Below, in pieces: positions 1-59,270 of a stretch of DNA of 64,000 nucleotides. Origin of the DNA: Azolla caroliniana (taxonomy: Eukaryota; Plantae; Polypodiophyta); contig JBHGNT010000003.1 of the NCBI GenBank assembly GCA_043228905.1, positions 22,196,001-22,260,000 of the forward strand, in the 5' to 3' direction. Every line of letters begins with the position of its first letter. Positions within the stretch are counted from its first letter, which is position 1. The position numbers were made by a program, and so were the translations under genes. The notes beneath the pieces are model-generated. The model did no database searches. It was given only the letters and a program-made list of their open reading frames with translations, and was not told where the DNA came from.

Positions 1-311
1 CAATGGCTATGCTTGGTATTAAATTAGTAATTCCACTCGCAGATGGTTTTGCAACGACATCACTTCCCCACTTTAAATTGCCAAAAGAGTATCTTATGAT
101 ATCTAATGCACTTGTATTCAAAACGGGTACATGTGCAACATCAAGTATTGCTCACTTGTCGCTGACATCAGTGTCTTTTAAAAAATGGCAAAAATGCTTG
201 GTTCTAATATTAAAGGATAAAATACAAGGGTGCAACAAACAAAATCATATATGATAGGTTCTTTCTCAAGTTGCATGTAGTAATCAAGTTGCATGGTTAT
301 GTGACCACCAC
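1..311 (+). pseudogene. C-terminal fragment of a TORNADO1-like Roco paralog (frameshifted; continues from upstream of the window)
   Basis: ORF 3..254 (LGIKLVIPLA..FKLPKEY..SSIAH..KWQKCLVLILKDK) aligns to the C-terminus of the 8092-12066 protein (LGINFVIPIA..LKLPKKY..SSISH..NWQKCLALILKDK). caagttgcatggttatgtgaccac = QVAWLCDH follows after a frameshift/stop. Confidence 0.85.
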
Positions 312-760
312 ATTAGATATCTTGCTAGGCTAAATTATATCTTGCTCATACAGGAGATTTGAACAAGAAAGGCATGATCTCATTTGTTTGAAATGCCTAG
401 TTTCAAATGTTGTTTATTGGACATTTCTATGTAATTCTTGACTAAACACATCCATGCTAACATATAGAAATCACTACTTTTGTCTGAATGGGTGAAGGTT
501 TTCCCTCCTAATTCAGTGATGTTTATGCTTATAAGAAAGGAAAATACATACCCCCCTCCCCTCGCCCCCTCAAATCTCACTAATGACTCTTGTTGACCCT
601 ACTCTCATGTACTACGTAGTTTGGTATGCACAAATCTATTTATTTCATGATCACATTAGCTATATTATCACAAAATTTGTGTGATATGCTAAAGAAGTTT
701 CACATCATATCGTTGGTTTTATTCTCAAATTGCTCAAAAGAGAACCTACCATAGTCTAGT

Positions 761-1593
761 TATGGTTTTATTCAACAATGTGTGAATAAGGAAATCATGT
801 GAGGAAAAGTAATGTTGCAATGCAGAAGGAAATGTGCTGAATAATAGGCCAAAAAAGTGGCACGAAATAACATCGGGATTCTAAAAGTATACAAGTAAGA
901 TAGATTTAGAACAAGACCCGAATCCCACACCCCATTTCTCATGTAATAAGAGAAAGCCCTAACTAGATTGATTTATCCATTTCACGTAATTCAGTCGGTT
1001 ACATGTTTTTCATAGCACCTTTCATGTCATGCCACATAAAGATGGATTACCTAAAATCAGTTGTGCCTTTTCTCATTTAGCATAGTGTTCAAACATTATT
1101 TTAGGTCATTTAGAGCCCATTCTGTGGCTCTAGATACATGTATACTTAGATATAGATTACCTAAACAATGGCACGTTTGGGTTGGGGCCAGTTTGGCCTC
1201 TGGCCTTTGTTTGTAAAGCTTTTTCTTTGTTTGTAGTTTTGTTGATTTCCATTTACGTTTTGTACGAAATCCTGTAAGGACTTGAAATCTCAATAGCACC
1301 ATTGTCTGAGGCTTTAAATGAGAATTCATATCCGAAATGCAAAAACTATCTCAGAAGAAAGTCATTGAAAACTTTGTCAAAGAACCGGCACTTTAGGCAT
1401 AGTTGGTACCGATGTTTACTGAGATTGGGAATCCCCACTTCGTGCTGATCGTATCGTATTGTCTTCGCTTATTGCAGCTGTGGTAATCGAGGCTTTGCTT
1501 TGTATGGTTTTATTCAGCAATGTGTGAATAAGGAAATCGTGTGAGGAAAAGTTAATGTAACAATGCAGGAAAGAAATGTGCTGAATAATAGGC
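761..1593. repeat. Pair of ~90-bp imperfect direct repeats (761-849 and 1503-1593), probably a TE/LTR remnant
   Basis: tatggttttattca(a/g)caatgtgtgaataaggaaatc(a/g)tgtgaggaaaag...gtgctgaataataggc occurs twice, ~740 bp apart. Confidence 0.75.
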
Positions 1594-2393
1594 AATAATC
1601 AGATGGCAAATCTGAATCGAAGATAGGTACCTAAACGATTAAAAATGAACATAATCAACTAGAATATATTAACAGTGTTCAAGTTCAACAAACACAGATT
1701 TTGGGTTCAAAAACATACAATGAAAATAGACATAGGGTGATTGCAGGTGGCAGTTAAGGCAATAATAGAAAATCTTGAATGGCAATGGGGATGTCTAATG
1801 TTTCTATGCTCTGAGCCTCTGAAGAGAAACAAATTAGCCTTGTTGGGAACACCCACATGTCCATAATACATCACCAGGTAGGGAGTTGCATCATATATTG
1901 AAGAGACATTGAAAATATAGGATCTCCACATAAGATAGGAATGAAATTATTCAAAGGCCATATATAGAGACAACCAAAATACAGAGTTGTGAGAATCTCA
2001 TCAAATTTTGATAAAAAGAAGTGGAAATCGGCACTGTAGGGAAGTTCGTGAAGTAAAATGTGCACAATTCTCAATAACCACCATTGTTTGTGTCACTTCC
2101 AGTGTCCACTTCTAAGGTATCCTTTTCATAGTAGTAAATTAATAATAATAGATTTCTTTTCTCCATTTCTATCCATCAGAGTTCAACAGATGACAAGGCA
2201 GGTCACAACAAAATCACCATAGAAAAAAGATACAGAACTTTGCTGTCAAAACAAGCCCAATACCTCATTATCTTAGACTCAAATTTGCTTGTCACAGAAG
2301 GTAGATGCTATGTTATTCTAGCCCCATTGTTTAGCACATTAAATGAGGTACTTTCTGAGGGAAAACCTCAGTTTCTGAGTTACGTTTTGAGGG

Positions 2394-2685
2394 AATTTCT
2401 CTAAGGTCGCCATGTCTCATAACGCATGGTTGGAGGAGGTGAAAGATATATCATATAATGTTGATGATGGATGATGCCAATAAATACGAGCAACATGAAT
2501 GTCATTCTAGTGTGACAATGACTGACTTGGCAAAAAGCGACGATTTAGAGAAGGGGGGCCAGAAACAATTGACATCAAAGAGGATGAATGTTGCAAGAGA
2601 AGAGTAACGGAGATTACACAGGCCTTAGAACCCAAATTTAATTTAGTGAAAGAAATGGTTGCTGCCAATCATGGAGAGATCATAA
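2394..2685 (+). pseudogene. Internal (post-COR / coiled-coil) fragment of a Roco paralog
   Basis: Encodes AWLEEVKDI..ECHSSVTMTDL..EDECCKR..ITQALEPKFNLVKEMVAANH, matching the intact ORF; contains frameshifts. Confidence 0.85.
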
Positions 2686-2824
2686 GGACAAGATAGAATA
2701 ATCTATACTTTTTCACACCCACACCCACACACTCTGAATATTCTCTTCATTTAATTGGTTTGGTTGAATCCCAAATCAGTGATTATTATTATGATTATTC
2801 ATACAAACTGCTAGTATCAATTAC

Positions 2825-2997
2825 ATGGGCACTGCTTCATCCCAGCATCATCATCAGAACCAGGATGTAGAAGTCGCGACCATCACCAGCGCTCTCATCA
2901 ATTGGAGGCCGTATGAATACGGGGACAGACTAAATTTCTGGCATCCTGACGGGGAAGCAGAACGAGATTGCGGAATCAAAGGCATCATGCTTGATTT
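2825..2997 (+). pseudogene. N-terminal fragment of a Roco paralog, interrupted by the copia element
   Basis: MGTASSQHHHQN..WHPDGE..IMLDL versus MAASSAPQHHEN..WHPAQE..MMLDL in the intact ORF; preceded by the conserved Roco 5' leader (ttggttgaatcccaaatcagtgattatt...aattacATG). Confidence 0.75.
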
Positions 2998-2998
2998 A

Positions 2999-5175
2999 TG
3001 TTTTCTAGCCACATTTTTTAGTGTGTAAATGGGCCCTGGGCGCCCAAAACTTATATTTTTCAATAATGTGAAAAGGGGGCCACACTTAGATGTAGTTGGT
3101 ACATCTATATGTACTCACTTTTGAAAGTAAGTTAAAACTTAAAAGAGAAAAACGGGCATTTTCCTGTTACATAAGAAAAAAACAGATATTTGAGAGCTCA
3201 TAGTCTCTTTCTTAGCCTGTTCATCCAGCGCTCTTTGTTACACCATTAAACGCCGACGTTTTAGACATCACCGCCTCCTTCATCAGCTACGTGTTGTGAG
3301 TTATTGTGTCTTTTAGTTGGGTTTAGTTGTTAAGGAAATCTCACATTCATTTCTTTCTCATAGTAAGCTAATTTGTTTAGAGTAGAACTTTGGTGTACAA
3401 GTTTTACGTTGAAAGTGAATTATTTTTGGACTAGGTCCCGTGGTTTGTACCTCTTTGAGGGTTTTCCATTTAAAATTTGTGGTGTATTGTGCATAGTTTT
3501 TGTTGTGTATATTGTTGCTTTCTTTGAGTAATCTTGCAGAACATAATCTTTGTCTCACGTAAGTGATTAAGTGTTATTAAGTTCCCAATCAAGTGTTATC
3601 AGAGCTGAGGTTTAGCACTTTGTTATGGAGGCGAATTATTCCACAATGGTTTGCTTGAATGGCACTAACTACCATAAATGGAAAGGTAAGATGAAAGATC
3701 TTCTTTTTGTGAAAAATCTACACTTACCTGTTTTCGCAGCCACTAAACTAGAGAGCAAAACCACCGAGGAATGGTTTTTCGAGAACCAACAGGTATGTGC
3801 TTTTATTCGACAATGGGTAGGAGATAATGTCTTAAACCATATTGTGAATGAAACGGATGCCAAAGTTCTATGGAACAAACTCGAAACATTGTATGCATCG
3901 AAGACACTAAACAATAAGTTGTTTTTTATTAAACAAGCGAAGAGTTTAGTGTATAAAGAAGGTAGTTCCATCTCAGATCATTTAAGTGAATTTCAAGGAT
4001 GTTTCAACCAACTTTTTGATATGGGAGTGAAATTGGATGATAAGATTCTTGCATTATGGTTGTTAAACACTCTTCCTGATTCATGGGAAATTTTTAGGGT
4101 ATCTTTAGTTAATGCAGCTCCAAACAGAATTCTGACTACGGAATATGTCAAGAATGGTATTCTAAGCGAGGAGATGCAACGAAGGACACAAGGGAGAGGG
4201 AGGAGTAAACATACAAGCCAAGGTCAAAACAACCGAGGGAGGATTAGAAGTAAATCAAAACCCAGGTATAAAGATCTAGAATGTCATTTTTGTGGTAAAA
4301 TAGGACACATAAAGAGGTACTGTTACAAATGGAAAAAGGAGAACCACACATCTAATGGTAAGCATCAAAAGAAAGGTAACACTGATAATTCTAATCGTGT
4401 TAATACAACTTCCTCACATGATTTACTCATTGTTTATGATGAAAACCTAATTAATCTTGCTTACAATGAAACTAATTGGGTTGTTGATAGTGCAGCATCG
4501 TTCCATGTCACATCTAGAAGGGAATTTTTTACTTCTTATACTTCAGGGGATTTTGGAGTTTTGAAGATGGGCAATGATGACCTTTCAAAGGTGGTAGGCA
4601 CCGGGACTATTTGTTTGGAGACCAACATGGGATTGAAATTGATCCTCAAGGAGGTAAGACATGTACCTGACATTCGTTTACATCTCATCTCCACTGGCAG
4701 GTTAGATGATGATGGCTATTGCAACATTTTTAATGAGGGGCAATGGGTGCTCACTAAGGGCTCATTGGTTGTAGCTCAGGGTAAGAAATGCTCTAGTTTG
4801 TATTTATTACAAGCATCTATCTCCACTAATCTTGTGAATGCAGTTGAAAGCAACAATATGTCAGAGTTATGACATAAAAGGTTGTCTCACATTAGTGAGA
4901 AGGGACTTGATTGCTTAGCAAAGAGAAACTTGCTTTCAAGTCTAAAAGATACGAAGTTAGACGTGTGCAATCATTGTGTGGTAGGAAAACAAAGAAGAGT
5001 CTCGTTCAAACATCATTCTTCTTAAAGAAAGGAAGAGGTACTTGAGTTAGTACATTCGGATGTTTGTGGTGCTTTAAAGGTAAAGGCAATAGGTGGTGCA
5101 CTCTACTTTGTTACTTTTCTTGATGATTATTCTAGGAAACTTTGGGTTCGAACATTGAAAACTAAGGATCAGATA
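2999..5175 (+). mobile_element. 3'-truncated Ty1/copia LTR retrotransposon (5' LTR ~2999-3591, PBS 3594-3605, gag-protease-start of integrase)
   Basis: LTR ends ...cccaatCA, followed by tgttatcagagc (one mismatch to the tRNA-iMet PBS tggtatcagagc), then the gag-pol ORF. After the TGA at 4870 the frame continues HKRLSHISEKG..C..C..GKQ..LELVHSDVCG..YFVTFLDDYSRK and then breaks off. LTR start is approximate. Confidence 0.9.
3625..4872 (+). CDS. Copia gag-protease polyprotein fragment (premature stop)
   Basis: LNGTNYHKWKGKMKDLL gag N-terminus, CCHC zinc knuckle CHFCGKIGHIKRYC, protease motif WVVDSAASFH; the stop replaces the Trp of the LWHxRL pre-integrase motif. Confidence 0.9.
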   Translation: MEANYSTMVCLNGTNYHKWKGKMKDLLFVKNLHLPVFAATKLESKTTEEWFFENQQVCAFIRQWVGDNVLNHIVNETDAKVLWNKLETLYASKTLNNKLFFIKQAKSLVYKEGSSISDHLSEFQGCFNQLFDMGVKLDDKILALWLLNTLPDSWEIFRVSLVNAAPNRILTTEYVKNGILSEEMQRRTQGRGRSKHTSQGQNNRGRIRSKSKPRYKDLECHFCGKIGHIKRYCYKWKKENHTSNGKHQKKGNTDNSNRVNTTSSHDLLIVYDENLINLAYNETNWVVDSAASFHVTSRREFFTSYTSGDFGVLKMGNDDLSKVVGTGTICLETNMGLKLILKEVRHVPDIRLHLISTGRLDDDGYCNIFNEGQWVLTKGSLVVAQGKKCSSLYLLQASISTNLVNAVESNNMSEL

Positions 5176-8091: not shown

Positions 8092-11000
8092 TTAATCTAG
8101 TGGGAATGGTGTCTGTTCTCGATAGTGTTTGTCACATAACCATGCGACTTGAATATTACTACCTTCTTCCTTGTAGGTGACACGCTTGAGCTGAAAGTTA
8201 TCGAATATGATTTCGTTTGTGACACCTCCATATTTGTCCTTCAATATTAATGCCAAGCATTTCTGCCAATTCTTGGATGACTGCAATATTGTTGGCCGGA
8301 CATGAGAGATGCTTGATGATGGTGCAGGTAAAGGGTACTTTTTTGGCAATTTAAGTTGGGCAAGTGAAAGATCTTGTGTAAAAGCACCTGCAATGGGAAT
8401 CACAAAGTTAATGCCGAGCTTAGCAGCTGTAGTCAATATCCAAACTAAACCATTAACATATGGAAGAGCTCTCTCCAGCCCCTCTCTAAGAGGCTCTGAG
8501 AAAGAGGTAATTGTGATGCCACGTTGGTTTTCCACTGGGTGGGGGGACATTCTGTCCTCGCAACAGAGCTGGACTCTTATAGATGAAACATGGCCTCCTG
8601 ATACTGTAGTCACCAGCTTCCTTATATTGTTCACACCATCACTAGTAAGGATGACGAAACGAGGTAGCTGCTTCTCAGCCTCAGCTTCCATGACAAAGTT
8701 TAGTAACTTGTCTATAGCTTTTTGAACCTTGCTCAGCACATCTTCCCTCATATCTTTAAGGTCACTATGTATTTCTTCCAATTTCTTACGCATGCTTAAG
8801 ATCTGCTGATAATTGGCAGCAACCATTTCCTTCACCAAATTAAATTCGGGTTTTAGGGCCCGTGTAATCTTCTCCGTAATCTCCTCAGTTATTGTTCTCT
8901 TGCTATATTCATCCTCTTGCATTTCTACATCTTGGCTATTTTTCAAGTTAGTCATGGATACACTACAATGACTTTCCTTCTGCTTGTATCCATTGACATC
9001 ATCCATCTCCGACAATATATCTTTCACTTCCTCCAGCCATGCTTTACAAGGCATGATGACCTCCGAATAATTCTTGGAACCAAGGATATCAATGAATGAG
9101 TTTGTTGTACATGTATCCATATACTTGCTTTTCTTCCAAACATGACATTCTTGCTTACCTTGCTCAAGTTGCCTCCTTAACTTTTGTTTCAAAGTAATCA
9201 TTTTTACGCATTGATCTTCTCTATGTTCAGCCTTTGATGGGTCATGGAAGGAGTCAGGTCGAATAACACTCTCGATCAACTTAACCCCTTGGATGCCAGT
9301 AGGTTGCGCACATATTTTGATCAAATGGTTGATGACATTCTCTTCAACATAGTCTAAATTGCTTTCCACGTATGATTGTTGAGTATTAGGATTTGCCGCT
9401 CGAACTAACACATCTATCACATGGTCCGATTTTGCTTTACAGAACACCACAATGATCTCCATGTTTTGCATATAGATGGAAATGAAATCTTTACTAAGGT
9501 TGATTTCGGCATTTTCCTCTTCTTGGAAAATATTGTTAAATACCACTTGAATCATTGGGAATAAACCTGGTGTAAGGAAGGTGAGGTTTGCGTTTTCACA
9601 TTCTATTCTTCTACCCATATATACATATGGATTACAACCATCTAAAGTGCTTGTGTCTAAGGTTCTCCATTTGAGTTGTTGATCCATACCATCAAAAAGT
9701 CGTCCTCCGATGGGATTTAAATTCAATGTGGCTGGGATAAAGAGCCTATCCTCGTTCCTAGTTGACTTGTCATGGTTATTCGGGACTCTACAACAAAGGT
9801 GCATTGCTTCCATCAAATCTACCAACAAAGACCCCTTCACTTCATCTTTGGTGACAAGTTCTAACATGTCTTCTAGGAAACGTCGATTTGTAAATCCATT
9901 AATTTTCATGGTATTCGAATTTTCCTTGCGATCTCGAAAATGAATCAAGCTTCCCATGATTTTATTGCAAAACCAGTTGGGGTCAAGAACAATATGTGAT
10001 ATATTGTTTACATATATGATGATCCCCGACTCATTTAAAGACGAGGCGATTCCTCGTACTATTTTGGCCTCATCCTCATTCAAAATGGGAGGTATTATAG
10101 GCTTGCAAATTTCACTAAACTTGGACCATGGAATGATTCGTTGGTTTGATGTCTCTAAATGCTTTGATAGATTTTGGCCTACCTCTGTGCAGATATCATA
10201 AACCATAACGCCTTCGAGCATTTGCTCGGCGATACCAAAGATATGTTGGGAGAGACATTTAACTGAATCCATGTTTCTTGCATCCACTTCGAAAGTGGTG
10301 TCGTCTATCTGAATGATCTCTTTGAACTCGGATCGAAGAGAACCAATTGTATTTGACATGGCACTTGCAATGAGCTTCATTTGATCGGTGCGGGTGAATA
10401 CGACAATCACTTTAACAGGAGTGTTGGATTTGCGAGATTTGGAGGCAAGGAACTTGAGCCAATACTTGAAGCTCACTTCAAATTCTTGCTCTGTTTTCGC
10501 TTCTGGCCCTGCTCTACTGTTTTTGCTCTTCCTGGGACTCCACACAAACATGAACAATGATGGGGCCTGGTAAGAGCTGGATGCAATGTCTGGGAGCATA
10601 CAGTCATGGAATGCGTGGAATTCTTCTTGACCTGCCATGTCCCACAACGAGAGCCGAATTCTATCGTTTTGTATGGCCCGAACCTCGATTCCTTCCGTGC
10701 GATCCATGGTCTCGATTAATCTGCCTCGACCCGTCAGAAGCCCTTTTAACTTGTCTCTCTTGCGCTGCCTTGCATGGATGGAATGCATGGTGGATAGCAG
10801 GGTAGTCTTCCCCGCATATGCATCTCCACAGATGAACAGTCGCATGGACTTGGCGGGAACTTTCTCAAGATCTCCCAACATGAACAGGCTCCGATTCCTC
10901 TTGAGCTGGGCTTCAATGGCAGGATCCATCTTCTTCTTGATGTGCGTCGTCATTCTCTGAAGATCCACTGTATCCAGGTAATCCATCTGGTAATCTATCT

Positions 11001-12066
11001 GCTGTTTACCTGACATCTTGAGCTCAAAGCACGGAAGGCCAGACACAGAGAGTGCATCGATCACGGCAGCAATTACAGAGGGTGTCCTCTGCAATTCTCC
11101 TCCTAAGGAAAGACTGTATAATCGAGGAGGATCAGTGTACGGAGCAGAGGTGCTGCCAGCTGTCTCGCTGCTCGTCTTCTTCTTCTTCTTCTTCTTCTTC
11201 AAAGAGGATCGTACCAGCTGCTCCATCCAATCGATTATCTCCTCGTTTGTGATTTCGCTGTGTGCGTATAAAGTGAGCTCTTTGAGATACGGCCAGTGCT
11301 GCAGGAAACCTCTGCTCTCACTCCATTCAATGGATCCGGCATATATGTACAGTCTCTGGAGATTGGCCGCGAGCAGTGAATGTGAGGGATGAAGTCCTGC
11401 CAGTTTTGAAACGAAATTAAAAGTGGATACATCAAAATAATGAAGCTCAAGGTGGAGGCTAACGAGGGATGTGAATTGACTTAACACCTCAACGCACACT
11501 TCACTCATATGGCATTCCTGCAGGGAGAGATGCGTCAGGCCCTTGCTTTTCTTGAGGGCACTCAGAGTCTCGTAAGGGTCGAAGCCAATGGCTTTGATGA
11601 GGAGGCTCCTGGGGGTCTTATCGTGATCTGCAGCGTCAGAGAGGGCCTCCACCCAAGCCACATTTTCTTCTTCGGTGAGCAGAATCTCGCCGTCCAGGAG
11701 CAGATGGACTGCTCCCCTGCTAAAATTAGCGGCAGCCCTGAGGTAGTCCAGTCTCTGTTCCGCAGTGGCACCTCCCAAATCAAGCATCATGTCTCTGCTC
11801 CCCCACCATTCTCCTTCTTCTTCTCCTTCTTGGGCAGGATGCCAATAGTGTAAATTATTGTAAAATACAGAATTATCATAGATGATGAGGAAAAGGTTCT
11901 GAACATTCGACGCCTGAATGAGGTAAGAGTGCAGATTCAAGACATCGAGAGCCGCTCTGGATTTCTCGCACACTGCAAGAACTTCCTCTCTATTCCAGCC
12001 CTTCCAGAGGAGGCGGTGAGGTGGTGGAAGGTTCTCGTGATGTTGCGGGGCTGATGATGCAGCCAT
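8092..12066 (-). CDS. Intact, intronless TORNADO1-like LRR-Roc-COR (Roco family GTPase) protein, 1324 aa
   Basis: A few degenerate LRRs (LTHLSLQEC, LVSLHLEL, LQRLYIY, LKELTLY, LYSLSLGG). Roc motifs: G1 GDAYAGKTT, G2 RTEGIEV, G3 WDMAGQEEFHAFHD, G4-like VFTRTD. COR: IVLDPNWFCNKIMG..LFIPATL..YMGRRIEC..FLTPGLFP. Then a coiled coil and a TRN1-type C-terminus (QLPR..LCCE..H.VENQ.G..QVAWLC..H). Confidence 0.92.
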   Translation of the reverse strand: MAASSAPQHHENLPPPHRLLWKGWNREEVLAVCEKSRAALDVLNLHSYLIQASNVQNLFLIIYDNSVFYNNLHYWHPAQEGEEEGEWWGSRDMMLDLGGATAEQRLDYLRAAANFSRGAVHLLLDGEILLTEEENVAWVEALSDAADHDKTPRSLLIKAIGFDPYETLSALKKSKGLTHLSLQECHMSEVCVEVLSQFTSLVSLHLELHYFDVSTFNFVSKLAGLHPSHSLLAANLQRLYIYAGSIEWSESRGFLQHWPYLKELTLYAHSEITNEEIIDWMEQLVRSSLKKKKKKKKTSSETAGSTSAPYTDPPRLYSLSLGGELQRTPSVIAAVIDALSVSGLPCFELKMSGKQQIDYQMDYLDTVDLQRMTTHIKKKMDPAIEAQLKRNRSLFMLGDLEKVPAKSMRLFICGDAYAGKTTLLSTMHSIHARQRKRDKLKGLLTGRGRLIETMDRTEGIEVRAIQNDRIRLSLWDMAGQEEFHAFHDCMLPDIASSSYQAPSLFMFVWSPRKSKNSRAGPEAKTEQEFEVSFKYWLKFLASKSRKSNTPVKVIVVFTRTDQMKLIASAMSNTIGSLRSEFKEIIQIDDTTFEVDARNMDSVKCLSQHIFGIAEQMLEGVMVYDICTEVGQNLSKHLETSNQRIIPWSKFSEICKPIIPPILNEDEAKIVRGIASSLNESGIIIYVNNISHIVLDPNWFCNKIMGSLIHFRDRKENSNTMKINGFTNRRFLEDMLELVTKDEVKGSLLVDLMEAMHLCCRVPNNHDKSTRNEDRLFIPATLNLNPIGGRLFDGMDQQLKWRTLDTSTLDGCNPYVYMGRRIECENANLTFLTPGLFPMIQVVFNNIFQEEENAEINLSKDFISIYMQNMEIIVVFCKAKSDHVIDVLVRAANPNTQQSYVESNLDYVEENVINHLIKICAQPTGIQGVKLIESVIRPDSFHDPSKAEHREDQCVKMITLKQKLRRQLEQGKQECHVWKKSKYMDTCTTNSFIDILGSKNYSEVIMPCKAWLEEVKDILSEMDDVNGYKQKESHCSVSMTNLKNSQDVEMQEDEYSKRTITEEITEKITRALKPEFNLVKEMVAANYQQILSMRKKLEEIHSDLKDMREDVLSKVQKAIDKLLNFVMEAEAEKQLPRFVILTSDGVNNIRKLVTTVSGGHVSSIRVQLCCEDRMSPHPVENQRGITITSFSEPLREGLERALPYVNGLVWILTTAAKLGINFVIPIAGAFTQDLSLAQLKLPKKYPLPAPSSSISHVRPTILQSSKNWQKCLALILKDKYGGVTNEIIFDNFQLKRVTYKEEGSNIQVAWLCDKHYREQTPFPLD

Positions 12067-14002: not shown

Positions 14003-14125
14003 GATGAGGCCGGGATGATGATGCAGCCGCCATGTAATTGATGCTAACAGATGTATGAAGAAGTATAAGAATAATCAATGCTTTGGGAATCAACCAAACC
14101 AATTCAATTAAGACAATAATCAGTG
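14003..14125 (-). pseudogene. Short 5' snippet (leader + first codons) of a Roco paralog
   Basis: gatgatgatgcagccgccatgtaattga..acagatgtatgaa..taatcaatg.tttgggaatcaaccaaa matches 12050-12135 and 22555-22584. Confidence 0.75.
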
Positions 14126-22534: not shown

Positions 22535-22566
<32 letters not shown>

Positions 22567-24929: not shown

Positions 24930-25320
24930 CTCTCAATAGTACCATGCAACTTGACTACTACCTGTTTGCTTATGTCCATCTTCAAACTTCCATAGATGCT
25001 TTGGTTCAAGCATGTGTTGTAGTAGACTTGATAGAAGAAGCTTCAATGATCTTCATGTTTTACACATAAATGGAAATGAAATTTTCGCCAAACTTAAGAT
25101 CAACATACCATCTTCTTGGAAAGCATTGTTAAATATAAGTTGAATTCTTTGGGAATAATCCTAGTTTAAAGGAGGTAAGGTTTATGTTGTCACACTCTAG
25201 TCTTCTACCCATATAATATATATATACATATGGATTATTATTTTAGATGCATGTGGATGAAGTTCTCTGTTAGAGTTTTTCCATTTCCATTAGAGATGCT
25301 TTGATGGAGCTTGTCAATGA
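24930..25320 (-). pseudogene. Highly deleted Roco relic (COR and C-terminal pieces) followed by the Roco-associated 3' flank
   Basis: Minus strand gives YMGRRLECDNINL..LFPK..FNNAFQED and QVAW; 24590-24915 is the reverse complement of ~330-740. Confidence 0.75.
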
Positions 25321-36400: not shown

Positions 36401-36712
36401 AAACTTCCATTCAAGGGATTTCAATCAAAGGACGACTGACGTCCTAGGAATTTGATTATAATAGGAATTCAAAGTCTAGTTTTTGTGATTGATTCCTAGT
36501 CATAATTAGTAAATTTGGATCAAGACCACGGCATAATAAGGGTTTTGAGCTAGCTGCAATTTCTGAGAATCCAATCATAGTTAGGTATTTCAAAGCCCCA
36601 AATTTTCAATTGATACCCAGTGATAGTTAGATTTTTCGTAGCCTGCAAGCAACTTCGGGATATATCAGGGTTTCGATCAATATATTGAAAGCCCCAAAGA
36701 TTTAACAGTAGT

Positions 36713-45960: not shown

Positions 45961-48309
45961 TTTTGAAAGTGATTAATGTCCTGGTGAGGATAAACAAAAG
46001 CAAAGAAAAAATGAACTTTTGAATACACAATTTATACACTCAACTTGTTCACACCTTCACTCACTTGATTGCTTGCATACTCGCCCAATCGCCCACTCAT
46101 TCATTCTCACACTATCTCTGATTGAATCAATCAGGTAGTTCATTCATTAAGTCAGCATGTCATTTGTTCCATCCTCCTTTTATTCAAGATCAATCACTGC
46201 CACAGACCACAGAGGCCAGTGGCCATTCACTCGACTGGAGATCACTGGCTCGGTCATTCCATTGTTCAATTATTGAGTAATTCTATACACACTCACTCGA
46301 TCATTTACCAGGTCATTCTCTCAGTAGGCAGATTTTTCAATCTGTCACACTTTGATCGATGTTCATTTGGTTTATAATAACTCCACACTGATTGGACCAT
46401 TCTCTCAATCTCACTGGTTCCCCGGTCATTCTCACACTCGCTCATTTCCTCATATAGTCTTCAACCACTTGATCCCTTGGGCCATCACCTAAGTTATCCA
46501 CTGGGACATTCCCTCAATCGAACACTCAATGAGGTGATTTATCTCAGAAGCTCATGTCAATGGGGTCATTCACTCATTTGCTCAACCAATCCTTTTGATT
46601 GACCAATCACTGAGATACTCATTTATTCAGTCATCTTCACATACTCACTTGATCATCTCCCACTCGTTCACTAATTCAAATATTTTTCATAGCTAGACAG
46701 CCCTAGATGTGAAGTGGGAAGCACCTAGAGGAAAAATTAATCCTTTTACTCTCATATCTCATCATCATTCAGTTGAGAATTATCTTAATTATAATTGAAA
46801 CCCATGCTATTATAAGACAGTATAAGCATGTTTCCACTAAAAACATACTACATATGTACAGACACACACGCACACAAACACAGCAAAAGATGCTTAGTTC
46901 TAGACACAAAAAATGAAAACATTGTAAATAAAGCTTGTTTCTTAATACCTTAAATAGACCCACAAATAAACCCTAATAAAAGTATTTCGCATAATAGTAT
47001 ATGCCTCAATATAACTGGACGCCTACACAGATGGAGACTCGATCCCCTTTTTTGATACTTCAAGCAGACCCAAATACAACCCTAAAATTGATATGTTGCA
47101 AAGACTATAATCAATCATCTCCACGGATGATTAGTCTACACAACTGAGCAGAGAGCAGGAAAGAGAGATAAATCTGTCTGTCTATTGAAACTGTGGTCAA
47201 GAGAAAGAGGCTCCTCCAACATCTACCGTAACGACGTAAGATTTCACCCCAACAAAACCCTAATACTAATTCACAGACACGGGGAAAGAGAGAGCAGAGA
47301 GCAGAGACATACCTGAGCTTCAGTTGTATCTTCTTTTCCTTCAACTCAAAACGTTGGGCTCTTGTGCAAAGAGGGTAGGCGGAGGACGGAAGGAAGAAAA
47401 AGAAGAAGGAGAAGAAGATAGGGGTCGGTCACTAAAACCCAAGATAATTCTCTCAAGAAGAAGATATTTTCTGTGGGCTGCTTTCACACTCTGATGGCCT
47501 CCTCTCCACACAATTCCCCCTTACCAAACTAACAGACACTCGCTCTCCTTTCCAACACCCACACGTCGGTCGGTCGTGTCTCTGCCTCGTCCGTATTCTT
47601 CCATTTATGCTTTTGCGGGTTTTGCTTTCACACCTTCAGGGCTCTCGAGACAGTTTCTGACCCAGCCTGCTTGCTTCTCACTCTTGTCCTCGCCTGCCTT
47701 GGCCCAACCCACGAATGTTTGTGGTCGAACTGCCTACCTTTCCCCTACTAAAATTGTTGATGTTTGTGGTGTGCTTTCACACCTTCAAGGGGCACCTTGA
47801 GAAAACCCCCATCCAACTTTGCTTTTTGTGTTTGTCCTCCAACCACATTTGTGTCTCACTTTGGCTCAACTCGTGAATGTTTCTAGTTTGCCTCTCACAC
47901 CTTTTACGGCCCTCGATACATTTACATATCCCCAAAGTGTGCTTTTAATGCTTTTCCTTCCATCCACATCCCTGTTTCCGTTGCCTCCATCTGGTCAATG
48001 CCTCTATTACTCATCCTTCTCTCCCTTCCGTGTTGCTTGGGGCTCATGTATGGATCTATATATGGAAGCCATGGCTCGACAAATGCTATTTAGTGGAGTT
48101 GTTTAATTCACACCTCTATCCTTTCGAGTAACCTTTCACACTTTTACACGTATGTGTAATCTAATCAAACCGAAAGATGTGAATGCTTGCTTCACATTTT
48201 CACCTTCTATCTCCCAACATTTAGATGGAAGGTAAGGTGTCAAAACCAATATCCCTTTTATTGCTCTTGGATTGAAACATCAAGGTATCAAAACCTAAAG
48301 GAAACATTG

Positions 48310-49490
48310 AAACTATATACCAAATCTGAAGTGAAGGGATCTTTAATTGTAGATTTGATGGAAGAAAATCACCTTTGGTGCAAGGGTTGGAGTAACCTTA
48401 TTGTGTGAACCAAGAATGAAGAACATCTCTTTCTACCATCAAAGGATCAAATGTGCGACAATGGAACAACTCCAATTAAGATCCCTAGTGAAGACTAGCG
48501 TAGAAATAAAGATCTCACCTTCCTTGCACCGTGATTGGTCCCAAGGATTCAAGTGTTATTTAACAATGCTTTCCAAGGCGAGGGTAATGATTCTATGAAA
48601 CTCATGAAAGATTTCATTTCCATTTATTTGCAAAACATGGAAGTTGTCATCATGGTTTGTAAAACAAAACTAGATAATGTGATTGGTGTTGTTTTGGGAT
48701 CCAAACAATTCTAAACAACATAAGAGAATGTAATGAGCCATTTGATCACTATGTGTGCGCCACCCATTGGCATACAAGGGGTTAAGTTGATTGAGAGCGT
48801 CAAAGGACTTAACGCCTTCTTTATTCACCAACGAAAGGTGGAAAATAGAAAATGACTACAAATGAAAAGCTAAGAAAGCAACTTACGCAAGGTGAGCCAT
48901 GAATGTCATGTCTATAAGGAGACCAAAAATCTAGGTTTTTGCAACAATATCCTTAACATCCTTGGCTTCAAGAATTACCTAGAGGTCTTTGTGATAGCTA
49001 AAGCATGGTTGGAAGAAGTGAAAGATGCATTGTTGTAGACTAATGAAATCAATGGATCCACGTAACTTGTATGAAGTCATAGTAGTGGGATCGGTACTTG
49101 CTTGTAAAAAAGCCAATATCTAGAGAAGAGAACCAAAACGAACCAAAACAATTGATATGCAAGAGGAAGAATCTTGCAAGAGAATGGTAATAGAGATAAT
49201 GTAAACCTTGGAACCTGCTACGAAATTAGGAATAGAAATTGCTACCAATCACCAAGAGATCTTTAAGGGCATTGGATGAAATGCATAAAAAGCTTTATCT
49301 ATGTATGAGGGAAGACATTATCAACAAGGTTGAGAAAGCAACCAATAAGTTATTGAAGTTTGTCAAGGAGTATGAGGCTAAGAAGCAACCGTCTTGTTTT
49401 GTCATCCTTACTAGTGATGGTGTGAAGAACATAGGGAAGCTGGTGACTTCACCCATGTTTTATCTTTGAGAGTTCAACTCTATCGAGAGG
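48310..49490 (+). pseudogene. Degenerate Roco paralog, COR to coiled-coil region
   Basis: TKSEVKGSLIVDLMEENHLWC; PIGIQGVKLIESV; AWLEEVKD; MREDIINKVEKATNKLLKFVKEYEAKKQPSCFVILTSDGVKNIGKLVT; many stops. Confidence 0.85.
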
Positions 49491-49739
49491 TTCACACTTT
49501 TGATCTATAGGTTCAACTACTTAGAAAACATGGTGCATGTGCATATTCTGATAGGAGAGAAGAGAGTGGAGTCTCACAACTACATAACGAGACATATTAT
49601 GTATGTATATGTACATATTTGGCTCTAGGATTATTCAGCCTTGAGTTAGGGTTTCTTAAAGTTGTGTCCAAGATCTGTAATTGTTGCTGCGGTGGATGCA
49701 CTTGCTCTCTCGGGGGCTTCCATTCTCTGATATGCGGAC

Positions 49740-50090
49740 TGGAAGAATGGATCCCACCACTTAAGAGGGATTCGGGGCATGTTCAATCAAGGTGGGAGAT
49801 CTCTCTCTCTCTCTCTCTCTCTCGAGTCTTCATGAAGTCGATGTGGCCGTTCATCAGCTGAGATGCGTATGCAGGGAAGACGACCCCACCCTTCTGTCAT
49901 AAGTTGGGAGAGCTTATGACCAGTGAAGGCATCCAGACTGATTGAGGTCGTAGCCATAGAAAAGGATGAACTACGGCTCTCGTTGCTGGACATGGTTTAT
50001 GAAATCTGCACACAGGTGAGCCAACATCTTTCAAAGCATTAAAACATCAAAACAATGAATCATTCCATGTTCGAAGTTTAGACATATTTG
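49740..50090 (+). pseudogene. Roco fragment containing the P-loop
   Basis: gatgcgtatgcagggaagacgacc = DAYAGKTT; later VYEICTQVSQHLSKH; large internal deletions. Confidence 0.75.
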
Positions 50091-50649
50091 CATGGATAAA
50101 ATTTACATTTTGCCCTGCCTCGTCTTGTTTCATTGATGCTTGCTGTCTGCTTTCACACCTCTCTGGCTCTCCAGACAATTCTGCCTGGAGCACTCGTTTC
50201 TCACAATTTTCCTCTTGCTGCAGTCGTGGCCAATAGGGTGCAAATTCGCACTAAGTCTGACTCCCAAAGTCTTGACACACCCTTCAAGGCCAAACTAGTC
50301 AAATGTAAACTTCATGTTTGCAAGGTATGGGTTTGTTCGTTACCATGACTTTGTTGAACAATGGTTGTGCTTGGAAACTATGTTTGACTTCAGAAGAAAT
50401 GTAGAAGTATAAAGTAGAGGATGCAAAAATATAATTTTATTTACATTTAAAAATATGCACATTACCTCCTTACACTTTCGCATATATGTAGAAGAAACAC
50501 ACATACACATGTGCGTGTGTGCGCTTATTGACACCATCAGACATGTATAGATATATCTAAATCACTTACATACACATAGAGCACAAGCATACATTTACAA
50601 CTATGCTAATGTACATGTATACGTGGTCTCCTTCAAACACCTCACTCAA

Positions 50650-52130
50650 GATGCTTTTGAGCTTTTCCTTGAAAATAGTCATTTTCACACATTGATCTTC
50701 TCTTCTCTCTGTTATGCCTTCGATAGGTCATAGAATGAGTCAAGTCGGATGACACCCTTGACCAACTTAACCCCTTGGATGCCAATGGGTTGTGCACATA
50801 TTGTGATCAAATAGTCGATGACATTCTCTTGTAGATGGGCTAAGGTCTTTGCCATGCATTCTTAAATATTGTTTGGAGCCCAAATCAACACATCGATTAT
50901 ATGGTTTGATTTTTCTTTATATGATATCATGATGATCTCCATGTTTTGCACATAAAGGTAATTGAAATCTTTGCAAAACTTAATATCAACATTACTCTCT
51001 TCTTGTAAAGCATTTGTTAAATATCAGCTAGATCCTTGGAAACAATCTTGGTGTAAGGAAATTGGGACTTGAGTTTACATACTCTAGTATTCTACCCCCA
51101 TAAACATATGGATTATCATATGTGGTGGTTGTAGTAAAGGTTTTCCATCGGAGTTGTTCCATGCACAAGTGATTCTTGGATGGTAGTTGTCAACGTGGTT
51201 GGGATAAATATATTATATTATCCTCAATCCCAGTAGACATTTCTAAGGTTAATGGGAGCTAAGCATGCAACAAAGGTGCATTGTTTCCATCCTATCTACA
51301 AAAATCAAACCCCCTTCACTTTAGATTCGGTAACGGGTTCCATTGTTGATTCGTAGTTCTGTGAGTTCTCATAGTGATCAATTTTTCGTTGGGATTTTGA
51401 AAACGTACCAAGCTTCCCATGATCTGATTGCAGAACCAATTGGGATCAAGAATGATGCATATGATGAGTGGGGGATTGCTTGTAATTTTGTGTCAACGTC
51501 GGATATTGGGAATGTAAAATTTATCCATCCAAAATATCTCGAAACTTCGACTTGAATGGGTAAATTGGTAGGTGGTGGTTTATCTTGCGTGTAGATGACA
51601 TAAACCATTACAGGTCCAAGTATTTGCTGGGCAATCCCAAAGATATATTCTGTGAGACTTTTTGACTGAATGCTCCTTCTCTAGCATCCACTTTTGAATG
51701 TGATTTTTCTTGATGATTCTTTGAAAGGAGGGTTAATTATGTCAATCGCCTCTATCGAACTCAGACTAGTGAATTAATATTTTTCTCACACAGTTGGACT
51801 TGCAATGAGATCCACTTGATTGGCAGATCACGTTAAGAGCAATGTTGGATTTGTGGTTTTTCCTGAAGCTTTTGGTCTGTTTTGTCTTCTTCTAGTTTGC
51901 TATTTCTGGCTCTTCTTGGGACTGCAAACAAAAATGAGGCTTGATAAGAACTAGATCTTATGTTGGAGAGCATACAATCATGGAATGTGTGCTTAGCTCC
52001 ATCCTTTTTCTATGGCTCTTGGCTTAGACGATGCCTTGAATGCGTGAATGTGATAATTCCAGATGCCTCCATGGATTACGGGTATTTTGCGTAAATGGAG
52101 TGCATGATGGATAGATGGAATTAATCATCA
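50650..52130 (-). pseudogene. Degenerate Roco paralog (Roc-COR region), inverted relative to its neighbours
   Basis: Minus strand: HTFHDCML, IILDPNWFCNQIMGSL, LCCML, QPIGIQGVKLV, EDQCVKM. Confidence 0.82.
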
Positions 52131-52179: not shown

Positions 52180-54345
52180 TGGGTGAGGCAATTGTATCCC
52201 AGTATCTTGAGAACAACCTGCAACCTATGCGTGTTAGCTTGACACACTGGAATTCAGACGAAGACCGAGAAGCGTATGAGAAATTCAGAGTGACTATTGA
52301 TGGCTTGAAGTTACTCTCTCATCTGATTAACCTTCCCAATGTTAAGAAATTTCCTCATTGGTACCCAAGGTGGATATTGCATATTGCTCTATGGCATAAG
52401 GCATAAGAATAAATAGGGCATACTGCTTTCTGAGCAATTAATTGATGTTATCTAGCATGAATATGGCAAGGGAGATTGGTGGAGCAAAGACATGATGCGT
52501 CACTTGGGATGTGCCATTGTGGAACAAAGACTGGAGTACCTTTGGGCTGTCGCCAATTTTAGTTGGGGAGTAGTCCATCTCCTAAATCTATAGGGTCTCC
52601 ATTAATTGGAGTAGGAGCACAAGTTTCTTGCTGCATTGGCCGTAGCTAAATGAGCTCACTCTATCAAGCATCAACACAATGACAAAGGAGGAGCTAATCA
52701 ATTGGATGGAGCACCTAGCATCCTTGTTGAAGGAGGAGGAGAAAGCTAGCAAGAATGTAGAAACCAATGCTCATTCTGTATCCTGCGATCATATTCCTCA
52801 ATTTTACAGCCTTGAGTTAGCCTTCAGTCTGACTTTTCATTATTTAAGTTATTGGGTGTATGGATGGATACCGCCATTGAAGCACAACTTGAGAGGAATT
52901 GGAGCATGTTCATGTTGAGGGAACTTGAGAAGTACCTACAACATCTATGCGGTTGTTCATTTGTGGAGATGCATACGCAGGGAAGACGACCTGTCTATCC
53001 ACCATGCATTCCATCTATGTTGGACTCAAGGACAAGTTATGAGAGCTTATGACCAGTGGCAGCATCCAAATGTCTAACATTCAAGTTTTATATTGCATAA
53101 AATCAATTCACTTTAATGTAAGTTCCAAGAGGTTATAGAGGTAGTCAACTGTCCTTCGGGAGAAAGTTAAGAAACACTATTACTTGGCTCGAAGTTTATG
53201 CTAGAAAGAAGGTTCTGTCCATACTCTTGCTGAACATATCTTTGGCATGGCCAAGAAAATGCTTGAAGGTGTTATGGTTTATGAAATTTGCATAGAGGTA
53301 AGCAAACATCTTTCAAAGCATTCAAAGACATCAAACCAACAAATCATTGCATGGGGAATTGCCTCGTTCTTTAATGAGTCAAGAATTGTTATATATGTAA
53401 ACAATATAACACGCATCATTCTTGATCCCAACTGGTTCAGCAATCAGATAATGGGAAGCTTGATACATTTTTTAGAGTGAAAGAAAAAATCGACGGATAT
53501 GGAAATTCATGGAGTTGTGAATCGACTTTTCTAGGAGGAGAAGTTGGAACCAGTTACCAAATATAATATGAACGGGCCGTGATGGGTAGATTTGATGAAG
53601 CAATGAATCTTTGTTGCAAGATTCCAAATAACCTTATGTGATCAACGACGAATGAGAATATGGTGTTTATCTCTGCCACATTGAGAAATCCCATCAAAGG
53701 ATCACTAATGGGCATGGAAAAACTCCAATGGAGAACCTCACCCACAAGCATCTAAGATGATAATCCATTTGTATATATCGATAGAAGACTAGAGTGTGAA
53801 AACACGAACCTTACCTTACACCAGATTGTTCCCAAGGATTCAAGTGGTATTTAACAATGCTTTCCAAGAAGCGAGATCAAATGCTGAAATCATTTTTGTT
53901 AAAGAATTCATTTCCATCTCTGTGCTAAACATGGAGTTCATCGTAGTGTTCTATCTAGCAAAATCAAACCATGTGATAGATGTGTTGGTTTAAGCTGCAA
54001 ATGATATTCAAGAAACATACATGGAAGCGAATGTAATCAACCATTTGATTACAATATGTGCGCAACCCATTGGCATCAAAGGGGTTAAGTTGATCAAGAG
54101 TGTCATTTGGCCCGACTCTTTCTATGACCCATCGAATGCTAAAGACAAAGAAGATCAATGTTTCAAAATGACAACTTTGAAGGAAGAGTTGAGAAGGCAA
54201 CTTGAGCAAGGTGAGTGAAAATGTCATATTTTGAAGAAAACCAAATATATGGTTGCTTGTACAACAAACTCCTTAATAGATATCCTTGGTTCCAAGAATT
54301 ATTTAGACGTCTTCATGTCTTATAAAGCATGGTTGAAATATATGT
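52180..54345 (+). pseudogene. Degenerate Roco paralog from N-terminus to post-COR, with multiple deletions
   Basis: WNSDEDREAYEKFR..LSHLI; EELINWMEHL; MDTAIEAQLERNWSMFML; CGDAYAGKTT; ILDPNWFSNQIMGSLIHF; LFPRIQVVFNNAFQE; QPIGIKGVKLI; frameshifted and truncated by TE sequence. Confidence 0.88.
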
Positions 54346-55950: not shown

Positions 55951-55984
<34 letters not shown>

Positions 55985-56035
55985 AATTAGCTTACCCTAT
56001 TGGTAAGTTGTTACACTACGAGCACTATGTCTTGT
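55765..56035. mobile_element. Cluster of tRNA-derived SINE-like heads (+ ~55765-55830, - 55899-55954, + ~55985-56035)
   Basis: Minus copy gactcagttggtaaga..gaggtcatgggttcaacccc has A-box and B-box-like motifs; plus copies read cttaccctattggtaag..gggtttgaaaccc; all adjoin (CT)n runs. Confidence 0.5.
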
Positions 56036-58301
56036 CTTGTTTATTTTACTTCATGGAGGGAAGCGAAATTTTTGGGTTTCTGAGTTATGTGATTGTTGCA
56101 ACTAGAAGATGAACATATGTGGTACAATCTCTGAAAAACTTGAGTTCCATTTGATTATGTGTATCTCTTGTTGATTCTGGTGTTTTTTCATAAAGTGTAA
56201 TATATACTACCTTTTTCGTTACGTGTGTTCCAGGTTTTGTTTTAATAAAACTTTTTCTCTTTGTATCATGCCATATATACTACCTTGATTGTTATAATTG
56301 GATTATGTATGTCATTCATATTCAAAAAGGCGAAGAGGAAAGGTACTCGCAAGTGATGTTGTGGCCAAAGAACAATAGCCTAAATATGTGAGTTTTTATG
56401 GTTAAATATTTGTACTTCATGGGCTTGCTAGAGGAAGAGGATGGACTCATAAAGAGACCAAGGTACATGTTCAAGACACTAGACCTAGGCACCTTTCATA
56501 TTATGGTATGAATTTATTTTCCTTTTGATGAATCGAACAACGATTCCAAAACATGGCATGGTTGCAAGAACTTAGAATCAATCGGAGGGAGTTTTCTGAG
56601 GAATATTTACCCAAGTGTTATATGATACTCATGATTTGGAAATATGTCAATGTACTTATGTATACAGTATAACCAATGGTGAAGTCTAAACTGATATGTG
56701 GTAGGAAATGCTCGGAATGGTTTTCCTAATTGAGATGTCTTTTAAACCTATATCTGTACAATAGATTTATAATGATTTTGAGAGTGTGTGATAATAAAAG
56801 TCTTACTTCATGTAAGAACACCCTTAGAACAATAAATTTGATATTGTCAACCTGATACATATGACTTGTGTCACATAAGCGTTAAATAAGAATGTCTTGC
56901 AGTTCCAAATTTATGATTTTCTGATTTTAAATATCATCTTGAATCTTCGAGCATTATGCCACTGACATTTGCAAGACTAAAGTAGAACATGATACAGGTT
57001 TCAAGTGTTGAATACATTGCTTGCTTTATGAGTTGTTCATGGAAAGTGATACATGGTCTTGTCATTGGTGATATAGAAATGTTGGTGGAAGAGTAGTATG
57101 ATGCTTAAGTGAGGTAACTTACAATTTGGTCACACATAAGGTGTGGCAAATAAAGCATACAATAAACATATTTCTCATACACTAGCCCACAATGCAAATG
57201 ATCCAAGCACAACCCTCAAAATATTTTAAGAGACCACTTTTAATTTCTACTAATTGTAAACAACACATCCACCAATATTACTCAGTGAATCCTGGAGGTG
57301 TGGCAAATAGAGCATAACATAAAGACAATGCAAGTTATTCTGCACAATCCATACAAACACAACACCTAAAACCATATTTCAAGAAACCATTTCATTTTTC
57401 ACTTCAACAAACCACAACCCTGCACATGTGCTCTTGCATTATGTTTGAACTCTTTGACCGCATGTATGCTATATTGGTTGGTAGCCTTTCGTAGAGAGCA
57501 TATCAATATAGCATCCAAGAACTCTCTCTACAGTGAGAGGGGGGTATCCACAAGACTGAGCTAAAAATACGTATTGGTATAATTGGGCATACGATGTCCA
57601 CAAGAGAGGAGGAAGTACACAAGACAGCCGGAGAGAAAGAAACAAGAGAGGAAGCACACAGGAGAGGAGAGGGGGAGATAAAACAGAAACAAGAGAGAGA
57701 GAGGAAGAACACAGAAAGGAGATCAGAGGAGACGGGGAGAGAAACAGAAACAAGAGCGAGGGAGAGGAAGAAAGACATTTGACTTTTGGCCCCAAAAAGG
57801 GGATTCTCTCTCTTCGTCTTTTCCTTCTTTATTTATTTAGTTTAGTTGTTCTTTTTCATATTTCTCTATTTTACTTTTCGATTTATTAGTATATCTAATT
57901 TCTAAATATAATTATGTGGACGGCCCTGATCGTCTGAGTCTTGGAGATTCCCCAAACCACACTTCAGGATCGTCCAAGCCGTAGATTCACGGGCTCTCAC
58001 TATCTAATGTTTGTGTATCAAATAGTGACGAGCGGAAAAATGCTGCTCCATTTTCTAGTTTCCGAATGCAAAAGTCTTTGGAGGTCGAAATTAAGCAGAA
58101 GACGATATTTATTATAAATACTCCTCTGCAGCTACTAGTCTAAGCAGTCAATTGAAGAAGCTTCGACAGCTTAATTACTTTCTGATTTGATTTAAATGCA
58201 TACGTACACTGATTATTCTCCTACATAATTGGGTTTGATTGATTCCCAACGCATTGATTATTAGTAATAGTAGTATACATAGATCTGTTAGTCTCAGTTA
58301 C

Positions 58302-59270
58302 ATGGCGGCTACATCATCATCCCAGCCTCATGAGTACGAGAACCGGCCACGACCTCACCGCCTCATCTGTAAGAAGTGGAGTAGAGAGGAGGTTCTTGCA
58401 GCATGCCAGAAATCCAGAGAGGCTCTCGATGTCTCGAGTACGCTCTCTCATCTCATTCACGTGTCTAATGCTCAGAGCCTCTTCGTCATCATTTGCAAGG
58501 CGGATGGAGATAACAGCATAGCTTATTGGCATCCTGACGATGAAGAAGAAGAAGCGCGAGAATGGGGGAGCAGAGACATGATGCTTGATTTGGGATGTGC
58601 GACTCCGGAGCAGAGACTGACTACCTCCAGGTTGCCGCCAATTTTAGCGGAGGAGCAGTCCATTTGATCATGGACGGAGAGGTTCTCCTCACCGGAGAAG
58701 AAAATGTGGCTTGGGTGGAGGCCCTCTCTGACCCCGCAGATTATGATGCGATCCCCAGGAGCCTCCTCATCAAAGTCTATGGGTTCGACCCTAAGAAAAG
58801 CAACGGCCTCACGCATCTCTCCCTGCAGCTCTGCCGCATGAGCGATGAGTGAGTGCAGGTGTTAAGTCACTTCAGATCCCTCACTAGCCTCCACCTTCAT
58901 CTTAATCCTTTGGATGTATGCCCAGAGTTCGTTGGGAAATTGGCGAACCTTCATCCCTCACATTCACCCCTCTCCGCCTCTCTCCAGAGACTGTACATCA
59001 CGCTCCGGACAAAATGAGAAGCGGGCAGATAATGGATTGGATGTATCACCTACCCTCGTCGTTGAATAAGAAAAAGAAGAGCCTGGCAGCACCTCTGCTG
59101 CATCATCCCCTGATCCAAGATCTCGATTATACAGTCTCTCCTTAGGATGTTATTTGCTAGGGGTGGGCCGAGATCCAAGACTCATAAGGGCTGTGGTGAT
59201 GGATGCACTCTCTCGATCCGGCCTTCCATTCCTTGAGCTGAAAGATTTAAGAGAGATGGATCCGACCATC
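58302..59270 (+). pseudogene. N-terminal (LRR) half of a Roco paralog, frameshifted and truncated before Roc
   Basis: MAATSSSQPHEYEN..KWSREEVLAACQKSREALDV..WGSRDMMLDLG; frameshift near 58620; AANFSGGAVHLIMDGEVLLTGEENVAWVEALSD; TGA at 58850; ends at DALSRSGLPFLELK..EMDPTIA. Confidence 0.88.

Follow-up and report, generated by a model that had tools for sequence, protein, structure and literature searches.

What accounts for an intact Roco gene lying among the remains of about ten others in a fern genome, and what might such a gene family do? The question is raised by 64,000 nucleotides of Azolla caroliniana DNA (assembly GCA_043228905.1, contig JBHGNT010000003.1, positions 22,196,001–22,260,000; 'the window' is this whole stretch, and positions below are counted from its first letter). 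A sequence-only reading had described a birth-and-death cluster of genes resembling Arabidopsis TORNADO1 (TRN1), which join leucine-rich repeats (LRRs) to Roc and COR domains, and had proposed that they act as intracellular sensors in the manner of nucleotide-binding LRR receptors (NLRs). Our analysis places the locus in an expanded fern Roco family undergoing birth and death, whose intact member is probably an intracellular immune-type sensor, a reading founded on sequence comparison and structure prediction to which, as a whole, we give a probability of roughly 0.57.

A self-search with the intact gene and a family profile detected about 11 Roco copies within the window. The intact reading frame of 1324 amino acids was present as described (12066–8092, minus strand), with Pfam Roc and COR-A matches, and together with the approximately ten decayed copies it forms not one cluster, as had been thought, but two subclusters (1–25.3 kb and 48.3–59.3 kb) separated by 23 kb that contain other genes, e.g. 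an ABC1 kinase. Both orientations and the reported variety of decay were borne out, nucleotide identity to the intact gene ranging from 66% (copy at 48.3–49.5 kb) to 90% (copy at 19.9–22.5 kb), with stops and frameshifts; this spread indicates that duplication recurred over a long time. Nine of the eleven pieces listed earlier matched the intact coding sequence (blastn, E < 1e-4; 10 shuffles per piece gave top scores of 22–30 bits), and the other two are real but nearly non-coding relics, 2825–2997 matching paralog P0015 at its N-terminus (tblastn, E 1.7e-4) and 14003–14125 being 82% identical in nucleotides to the intact gene over its leader and start. The most similar copy (E in Table 1) was duplicated along with its upstream region (80% over approximately 700 nt) and is thus a DNA-level duplicate; retroposition as its source is ruled out on the same ground. 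The interleaving with transposable elements that had been reported applies to the first subcluster, where copia-type gag-pol and long interspersed nuclear element (LINE)-type reverse transcriptase relics were found; a Pfam scan of 48 of the 91 listed open reading frames of at least 85 amino acids, picked outside the Roco copies, detected no such relic in the second. A pair of direct repeats (6657–7730 and 14205–15251; 1.07 kb, 85% identity) also occurs, each member beside a Roco copy.

The product of the intact gene is a true Roco protein, in which a predicted LRR precedes Roc and COR domains, a predicted coiled coil and a tail with conserved Cys and His. The LRR-Roc-COR architecture claimed for it is seen by Pfam for Roc and COR; Pfam gave no LRR match in this protein, nor, with a limit of E ≤ 0.1, in the 13 family members scanned, and the LRR assignment therefore rests on the predicted fold. 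Residues 1–399 were modelled as a beta-alpha solenoid (predicted local distance difference test score, pLDDT, 76; predicted template modelling score 0.81), the best structural matches of which were LRRs of the ribonuclease inhibitor (RI) type, including RanGAP, NLRP9, NLRP3 and NOD2 (Z 15–18; root mean square deviation 3.5–5.3 Å over 255–279 residues), a likeness of fold that is by itself no indication of function. The Pfam Roc match (residues 410–491) reached 33.1 bits where 27 would have sufficed, and the intact motifs G1 (GDAYAGKTT), G2 (RT), G3 (WDMAGQ) and G4 (TRTD) predict a switch that binds and hydrolyses GTP. COR-A (residues 633–779) scored 36 bits against 35.3, and the model of residues 400–1324, at a mean pLDDT of 59, had LRRK1, LRRK2 and the C. 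tepidum Roco protein as its top Foldseek matches (E 2e-19 to 3e-16). When three copies of residues 1060–1324 were modelled together the score was 0.68, against 0.01 for the best control (pLDDT at least 40, agreement between runs at least 53%), a mark of self-association that 21 of 30 solved pairs and none of 23 single chains reached in a calibration made with two-copy microbial proteins. In the tail, which was modelled at pLDDT < 50 and has no confidently predicted fold, C1169, E1170, H1176 and C1311 are invariant across an alignment of 29 proteins that spans Chara to angiosperms, and this conserved set likely forms a zinc site, which would enclose a hydrophobic helical segment with Gly residues (~1198–1235). 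An ESM Atlas search with protein P0008 returned streptophyte Roc clusters and TRN1.

Is the intact gene simply the fern TRN1? Its nearest named relatives are Adiantum proteins (39–41% identity), and it shares only 25% identity with TRN1 (P0024, from Ipomoea) over residues 375–1314, the LRR not being aligned to TRN1 by BLAST. A profile search of 1.84 billion representative proteins gave 559 matches at E ≤ 1e-10, the best 150 of which were used; among 30 proteins looked up, the species named were of Adiantum, Ceratopteris, Pteridium, Ceratodon, Riccia, Marchantia, Calypogeia and Chara, along with one TRN1. By comparison, every named protein among the best 120 of 244 matches in a TRN1-seeded search was from an angiosperm, those outside Ipomoea being 68–79% identical to the Ipomoea query, and in 31 sampled angiosperm TRN1 proteins the LRRs averaged 72% identity and the other domains 77–82%. 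In Roc-COR trees (114 and 48 rows) the window copies and related metagenomic contigs from ENA formed a single clade (Shimodaira–Hasegawa-like approximate likelihood-ratio support 100), the large lineage-specific clade that had been anticipated, inside a larger clade (support 100) with named members that are all ferns. The TRN1 sequences grouped apart, in a clade of short branches at the end of a long stem, and the trees did not fix the order of the deepest branches. An approximately unbiased (AU) test (LG+G4, quick trees) rejected the intact gene as sister to TRN1 (p-AU 0.000185), so it is not a one-to-one TRN1 ortholog, a candidate also ruled out by the low identity, the ~11 window copies and the 11 pieces in one related assembly described below. 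The same test did not reject a grouping of the whole fern clade with TRN1 (p-AU 0.33), and the whole fern clade may accordingly be co-orthologous to TRN1. Of the earlier proposal of an expanded family separate from true TRN1, the expansion is thus upheld and the separateness is no more than possible. The position of the G3 aspartate is occupied by Asn in 111 of 120 TRN1 sequences and by Asp in 112 of 116 other plant Rocos, the window gene included; because TRN1 has replaced a residue that other family members retain, TRN1 appears to be the derived form. The G1 Ser/Thr is also replaced in about 20 of the 120 TRN1 proteins (P0024, P0185–P0303), and as a GTPase TRN1 may be weakened or otherwise changed.

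How large the family is, and how fast it turns over, can be judged from a metagenome scan in which 105 stretches were confirmed and 80 loci returned, the analysis set being 41 ENA contigs with 39–85% identity. Another 39 JGI loci at 25–32% identity were excluded from all counts; these (L041–L043 and L045–L080) make up a distant Roco group that is likewise multi-copy. The best nucleotide matches of the ENA contigs to the intact gene were 85–89% identical, and none is the window gene itself. One assembly alone contained 11 pieces with 44–77% pairwise protein identity (one pair did not overlap), and seven gene models, two of them adjacent, were found in Adiantum capillus-veneris. The expansions are independent in ferns, mosses, liverworts and Chara. 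After splicing, 13 of the 41 ENA loci were open over the part covered and 28 were broken; L002 is a second full-length open gene (62% identity). In two-ratio fits the ratio of nonsynonymous to synonymous substitution rates (dN/dS) on the terminal branch was 0.39–0.41 for the intact gene (p 0.003 against 1) and 0.38–0.44 for the dead copy E (p < 0.001 against 1). Copy E was therefore functional for most of its life, and since it was under purifying selection until recently the locus reflects birth and death, as first proposed, rather than neutral litter.

Several loci also point to exchange between copies. Between L013 and L014 identity is 95% across 3 kb of Roc, COR and tail and 76% across the preceding stretch, with dS of 0.56 in the LRR and 0.04 in COR; L007 resembles L002 overall and carries an L005-like Roc patch, the partner switching within Roc, and L001 and L002 converge in the later COR only. 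A phase-1 GT-AG or GC-AG intron lies in the P-loop glycine codon of 12 loci (L005–L009, L011, L013, L014, L020, L024, L028 and L029; GC donors in six of the 12), with the acceptor alone in four more; the window gene and five close loci are without it, which implies that the subclade to which the window gene belongs has lost the intron. Where the intron is present, prokaryote-style gene calling truncates the protein at GDPFAG. Large LRR-internal deletions recur, in L020 and L028 (residues ~124–311; L028 remains in frame) and in L001 and window relic J, which have the same deletions as each other. In the contig of P0014 a single open reading frame joins the Roc, COR and tail of a first copy, without loss of frame, to the LRR of the next, a layout that suggests a tandem array or a fusion.

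Selection was compared among domains in six paralogs (the intact window gene, L002, L008, L011, L013 and L014). dN/dS was 0.60 in the LRR (confidence interval 0.51–0.72), 0.33 in Roc and 0.35 in COR, and the likelihood-ratio test (LRT) statistic for M2a against M1a was 34.8 in the LRR and 0 in both Roc and COR. With the LRR's own tree it was 32.4 for all columns and 22.1 for hand-trimmed columns, M8 against M8a being concordant; it was 33–49 with seven or eight sequences (39.5–49.3 with eight), and under a uniform gap-padding rule 26.3 and 32.8, Roc and COR again giving 0 on the six paralogs. None of 28 neutral M1a simulations exceeded 4.1. The LRR diversification anticipated from the sequence was thus recovered (LRT 22–35 across the six-paralog fits). 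All seven sites with a posterior above 0.7 in the hand-trimmed columns (160, 184, 242, 244, 267, 268 and 323) lie one to three residues past the last Leu of an LRR strand, and gap padding adds sites 73–79, at and after another strand, as well as 102 and 273.

The conservation of switch and tail, the diversifying face of the LRR and the steady turnover of copies are together consistent with a receptor family that follows a ligand as it changes. In the mechanism we envisage, a microbial ligand of varying form, or a protein of the host that a microbe has modified, would bind where the LRR strands end and release the Roc-COR GTP switch; the coiled coil would then cluster the conserved Cys/His tails, and the clustered tails would constitute the output. 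Sensor, GTPase switch and any output would in this scheme follow one another from the N- to the C-terminus.

A number of observations weigh against this interpretation. In the three-copy model the predicted interface is the coiled coil alone, the tail taking no part; the copy number was preset, and coiled coils readily pass such tests. The tail gave no usable match in the ESM Atlas, resembles no known effector fold and is common to the developmental TRN1. The codon models were run with our own GY94 code rather than PAML, the six-paralog set includes two copies with stops, and recombination can inflate site tests. With the four sequences that are open through LRR, Roc and COR the LRR statistic was 1.8 (not significant) for trimmed columns and 9.0 for all columns. 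The class of xxLxLxx positions defined a priori had a dN/dS of 0.78 against 0.48 for the rest, raised but not above 1, and the class of 18 sites after the last Leu that reached 2.39 was defined post hoc. With ten paralogs the statistic was 12.7 in COR-A, 8.6 in COR-B and 9.6 in the coiled coil (0 in Roc and tail); of these three the COR-A signal alone outlasted gap padding (14.6), so that selection is not confined to the LRR. A fair reading of the codon fits is that the LRR signal is strong and the COR-A signal smaller. Coverage of the contigs was also low (approximately 1.3–3.8x), and a share of the breaks and mosaics may stem from faulty assembly, possibly inflating the broken count.

Other explanations draw on the same observations. 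The family could be a fast-evolving recognition system directed not at pathogens but at symbionts, at self and non-self among gametophytes, or at internal genetic conflict, since birth and death, mosaics and LRR selection tell only that the ligand varies, and the tail resembles no known immune effector; the independent expansions from Chara to ferns fit a pressure common to all plants, however, and the published parallels are defence or conflict systems, and we regard this alternative as unlikely. Nor do we think it probable that the genes are fern co-orthologs of TRN1 with a developmental or trafficking job, in which the LRR is relaxed by redundancy and the selection signal arises from alignment error and recombination. 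Such co-orthology is compatible with the AU result for the whole fern clade, with the domain order and invariant tail shared with TRN1, and with the signals outside the LRR and the null four-sequence test. Against it, the LRR signal withstood two trimming rules and simulation, and Roc, the very site of mosaic breakpoints, gave an LRT of 0 with both six and ten sequences; TRN1 itself evolves slowly and mostly has Asn in place of the G3 Asp that nearly all other plant Rocos keep, and 28 broken copies among 41 are unlike a patterning gene.

Least probable by far, and largely refuted, is the view that the copies are neutral duplicates, scattered about a single ordinary gene through transposons or local rearrangement. 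About ten of the ~11 local copies are indeed dead, and two transposable element relics lie in the first subcluster; yet copy E was under purifying selection on its own branch and carried its upstream region, pointing to DNA-level duplication, other open paralogs exist, including the full-length L002, and the 66–90% range of identities reflects duplication recurring over a long time. The version of this view that had been posed against the immune proposal, a conserved single-copy TRN1 ortholog surrounded by neutral duplicates, is likewise contradicted by the 25% identity to TRN1, by the AU rejection and by the selection on copy E.

The coordinates of the Roco copies, of the domains of the intact gene and of the other features of the window are collected in Table 1. 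The cysteine protease adjoining the last Roco relic is one which we take to be RD21-like. An Asn/Gln-rich repeat open reading frame (44878–45972) lies near the second S1-domain exon.

Table 1. Roco copies, domains of the intact gene and other features of the window.
Feature	Position	Strand	Basis or remark
Relic A: 3' end of a copy, residues 1215–1316	6..317	+	blastn; truncated at window start
Relic B1: residues 999–1093	2394..2693	+	blastn
Relic B2: leader and decayed N-terminus	2714..2998	+	blastn/tblastn
Copia-type gag-pol relic	3616..4872	+	Pfam
Copy C: intact single-exon Roco gene, 1324 aa (P0001)	8092..12066	-	no stop, no intron
C-terminal tail of copy C	8095..8676	-	conserved residues; common to TRN1, no Pfam family
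Coiled coil of copy C, residues 1060–1129	8680..8889	-	long helix in model; predicted self-association
COR of copy C, residues ~621–1010, directly after Roc	9037..10206	-	Pfam and Foldseek
Roc GTPase of copy C, residues ~405–620	10207..10854	-	Pfam and G motifs
Predicted LRR solenoid of copy C, residues ~20–395	10882..12009	-	~10 beta-alpha repeats, RI type; bears positively selected sites
Relic D: leader and start adjoining 3'-flank sequence	13825..14125	-	self-blastn; coding sequence almost all gone
LINE-type reverse transcriptase relic	16926..17576	-	Pfam RVT_1; LINE type from a reading of motifs
Copy E: recent pseudogene	19887..22545	-	90% nt identity to C; LRR deleted (residues ~41–405), frameshifts and one stop
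Relic F: COR piece (residues ~812–872) and 3' flank	24570..25319	-	search match 25045–25281
S1-domain exon (weak)	26590–27033	-	Pfam; 72% alike to the other
ABC1 atypical kinase gene, multi-exon	36689–39859	+	Pfam ABC1; between subclusters
S1-domain exon (weak)	43306–43752	-	Pfam
Relic G: residues 731–1170	48295..49490	+	8 stops
Relic H: residues 323–654	49650..50091	+	large deletions
Relic I: residues 424–977	50617..52114	-	13 stops; most decayed among long copies
Relic J: residues ~12–1012	52209..54338	+	LRR deletions, 11 stops
Relic K: LRR only, residues 1–390	58302..59270	+	frameshifts and stops
Papain-family cysteine protease	59790–64000	-	Pfam; I29 propeptide and granulin domain; adjoins relic K

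Plant NLR clusters consist of tandem arrays with pseudogenes, sequence exchange and LRR diversification, and the window family resembles them in its clustered birth and death and its diversifying LRR, within the limits set by the COR-A signal and the null four-sequence test. The likeness to NLRs proposed earlier therefore applies to the mode of evolution and not to the architecture: the nucleotide domain was identified as Roc, not NB-ARC, the LRR starts at about residue 20, before the GTPase switch, and the protein has neither NB-ARC nor an N-terminal coiled-coil, TIR or RPW8 domain. TRN1 shares the RI-type LRR, Roc, COR, coiled coil and invariant Cys/His tail (PMC4104024; PMC11378527; these and most of the papers below are cited from excerpts of their text), and differs in being slow and mostly Asn at G3; the window gene retains Asp and belongs to a large set of divergent paralogs. 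For the ROCO genes of the brown alga Ectocarpus an immune role dependent on exon shuffling was proposed in the excerpts of PMC3341825. The algal LRR-ROCO genes offer an analogy in their clustering, high birth and death, many pseudogenes, positively selected LRR residues and proposed immunity (PMC3341825; PMC11378527, four species). They have one LRR per exon and shuffle those exons, whereas the window family has no intron or a single P-loop intron and diversifies through point change, deletion and domain-scale recombination. Bacterial AP-GTPases are described in the excerpted text of PMC8195603 as counter-invader proteins whose LRRs evolve rapidly and whose C-terminal effectors vary; these Rocos share with the plant family a fast-evolving N-terminal LRR, a GTPase-COR switch and a C-terminal output position, but exchange at least 24 C-terminal effector domains, the plant family having one fixed tail. 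The sensor-first, output-last layout proposed here would thus be that of the AP-GTPase conflict proteins and the reverse of that of plant NLRs.

Family proteins are already in public databases as COR-domain models. We found no published account of expanded Roco genes in ferns, bryophytes or other non-seed plants, although gene-family tables in supplements could mention them. A fern NLR survey (PMC12512272) mined genomes by NB-ARC, and the terms Roco, Roc, COR and TORNADO do not occur in its main text; nor do the main texts of PMC11906373 and PMC6786969 (fern and Marchantia papers) mention Roco or TORNADO. According to the excerpted 2014 review, ROCO genes occurred in flowering plants only among the photosynthetic eukaryotes searched, ferns included (PMC4104024), and according to a 2024 paper plants have one or two ROCO genes (PMC11378527). 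The data from ferns, mosses, liverworts and Chara contradict both statements as worded there.

A broader possibility, which we regard as less probable than not, is that non-seed plants (ferns, mosses, liverworts and Chara) use a second class of intracellular immune receptor, with a GTPase switch and a zinc-bound C-terminal output domain, that expanded repeatedly within each lineage, and that angiosperm TORNADO1 is a domesticated survivor which slowed, lost the G3 aspartate and took on a developmental job. If the members of the family are sensors, surveys based on NB-ARC would have overlooked an entire class of receptors in non-seed plants, and the idea of Roco immunity raised for brown algae would become testable in transformable plants, among them Marchantia, Ceratopteris and moss. 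The family would then also provide a route to the biochemistry of TRN1 and to its tail domain.

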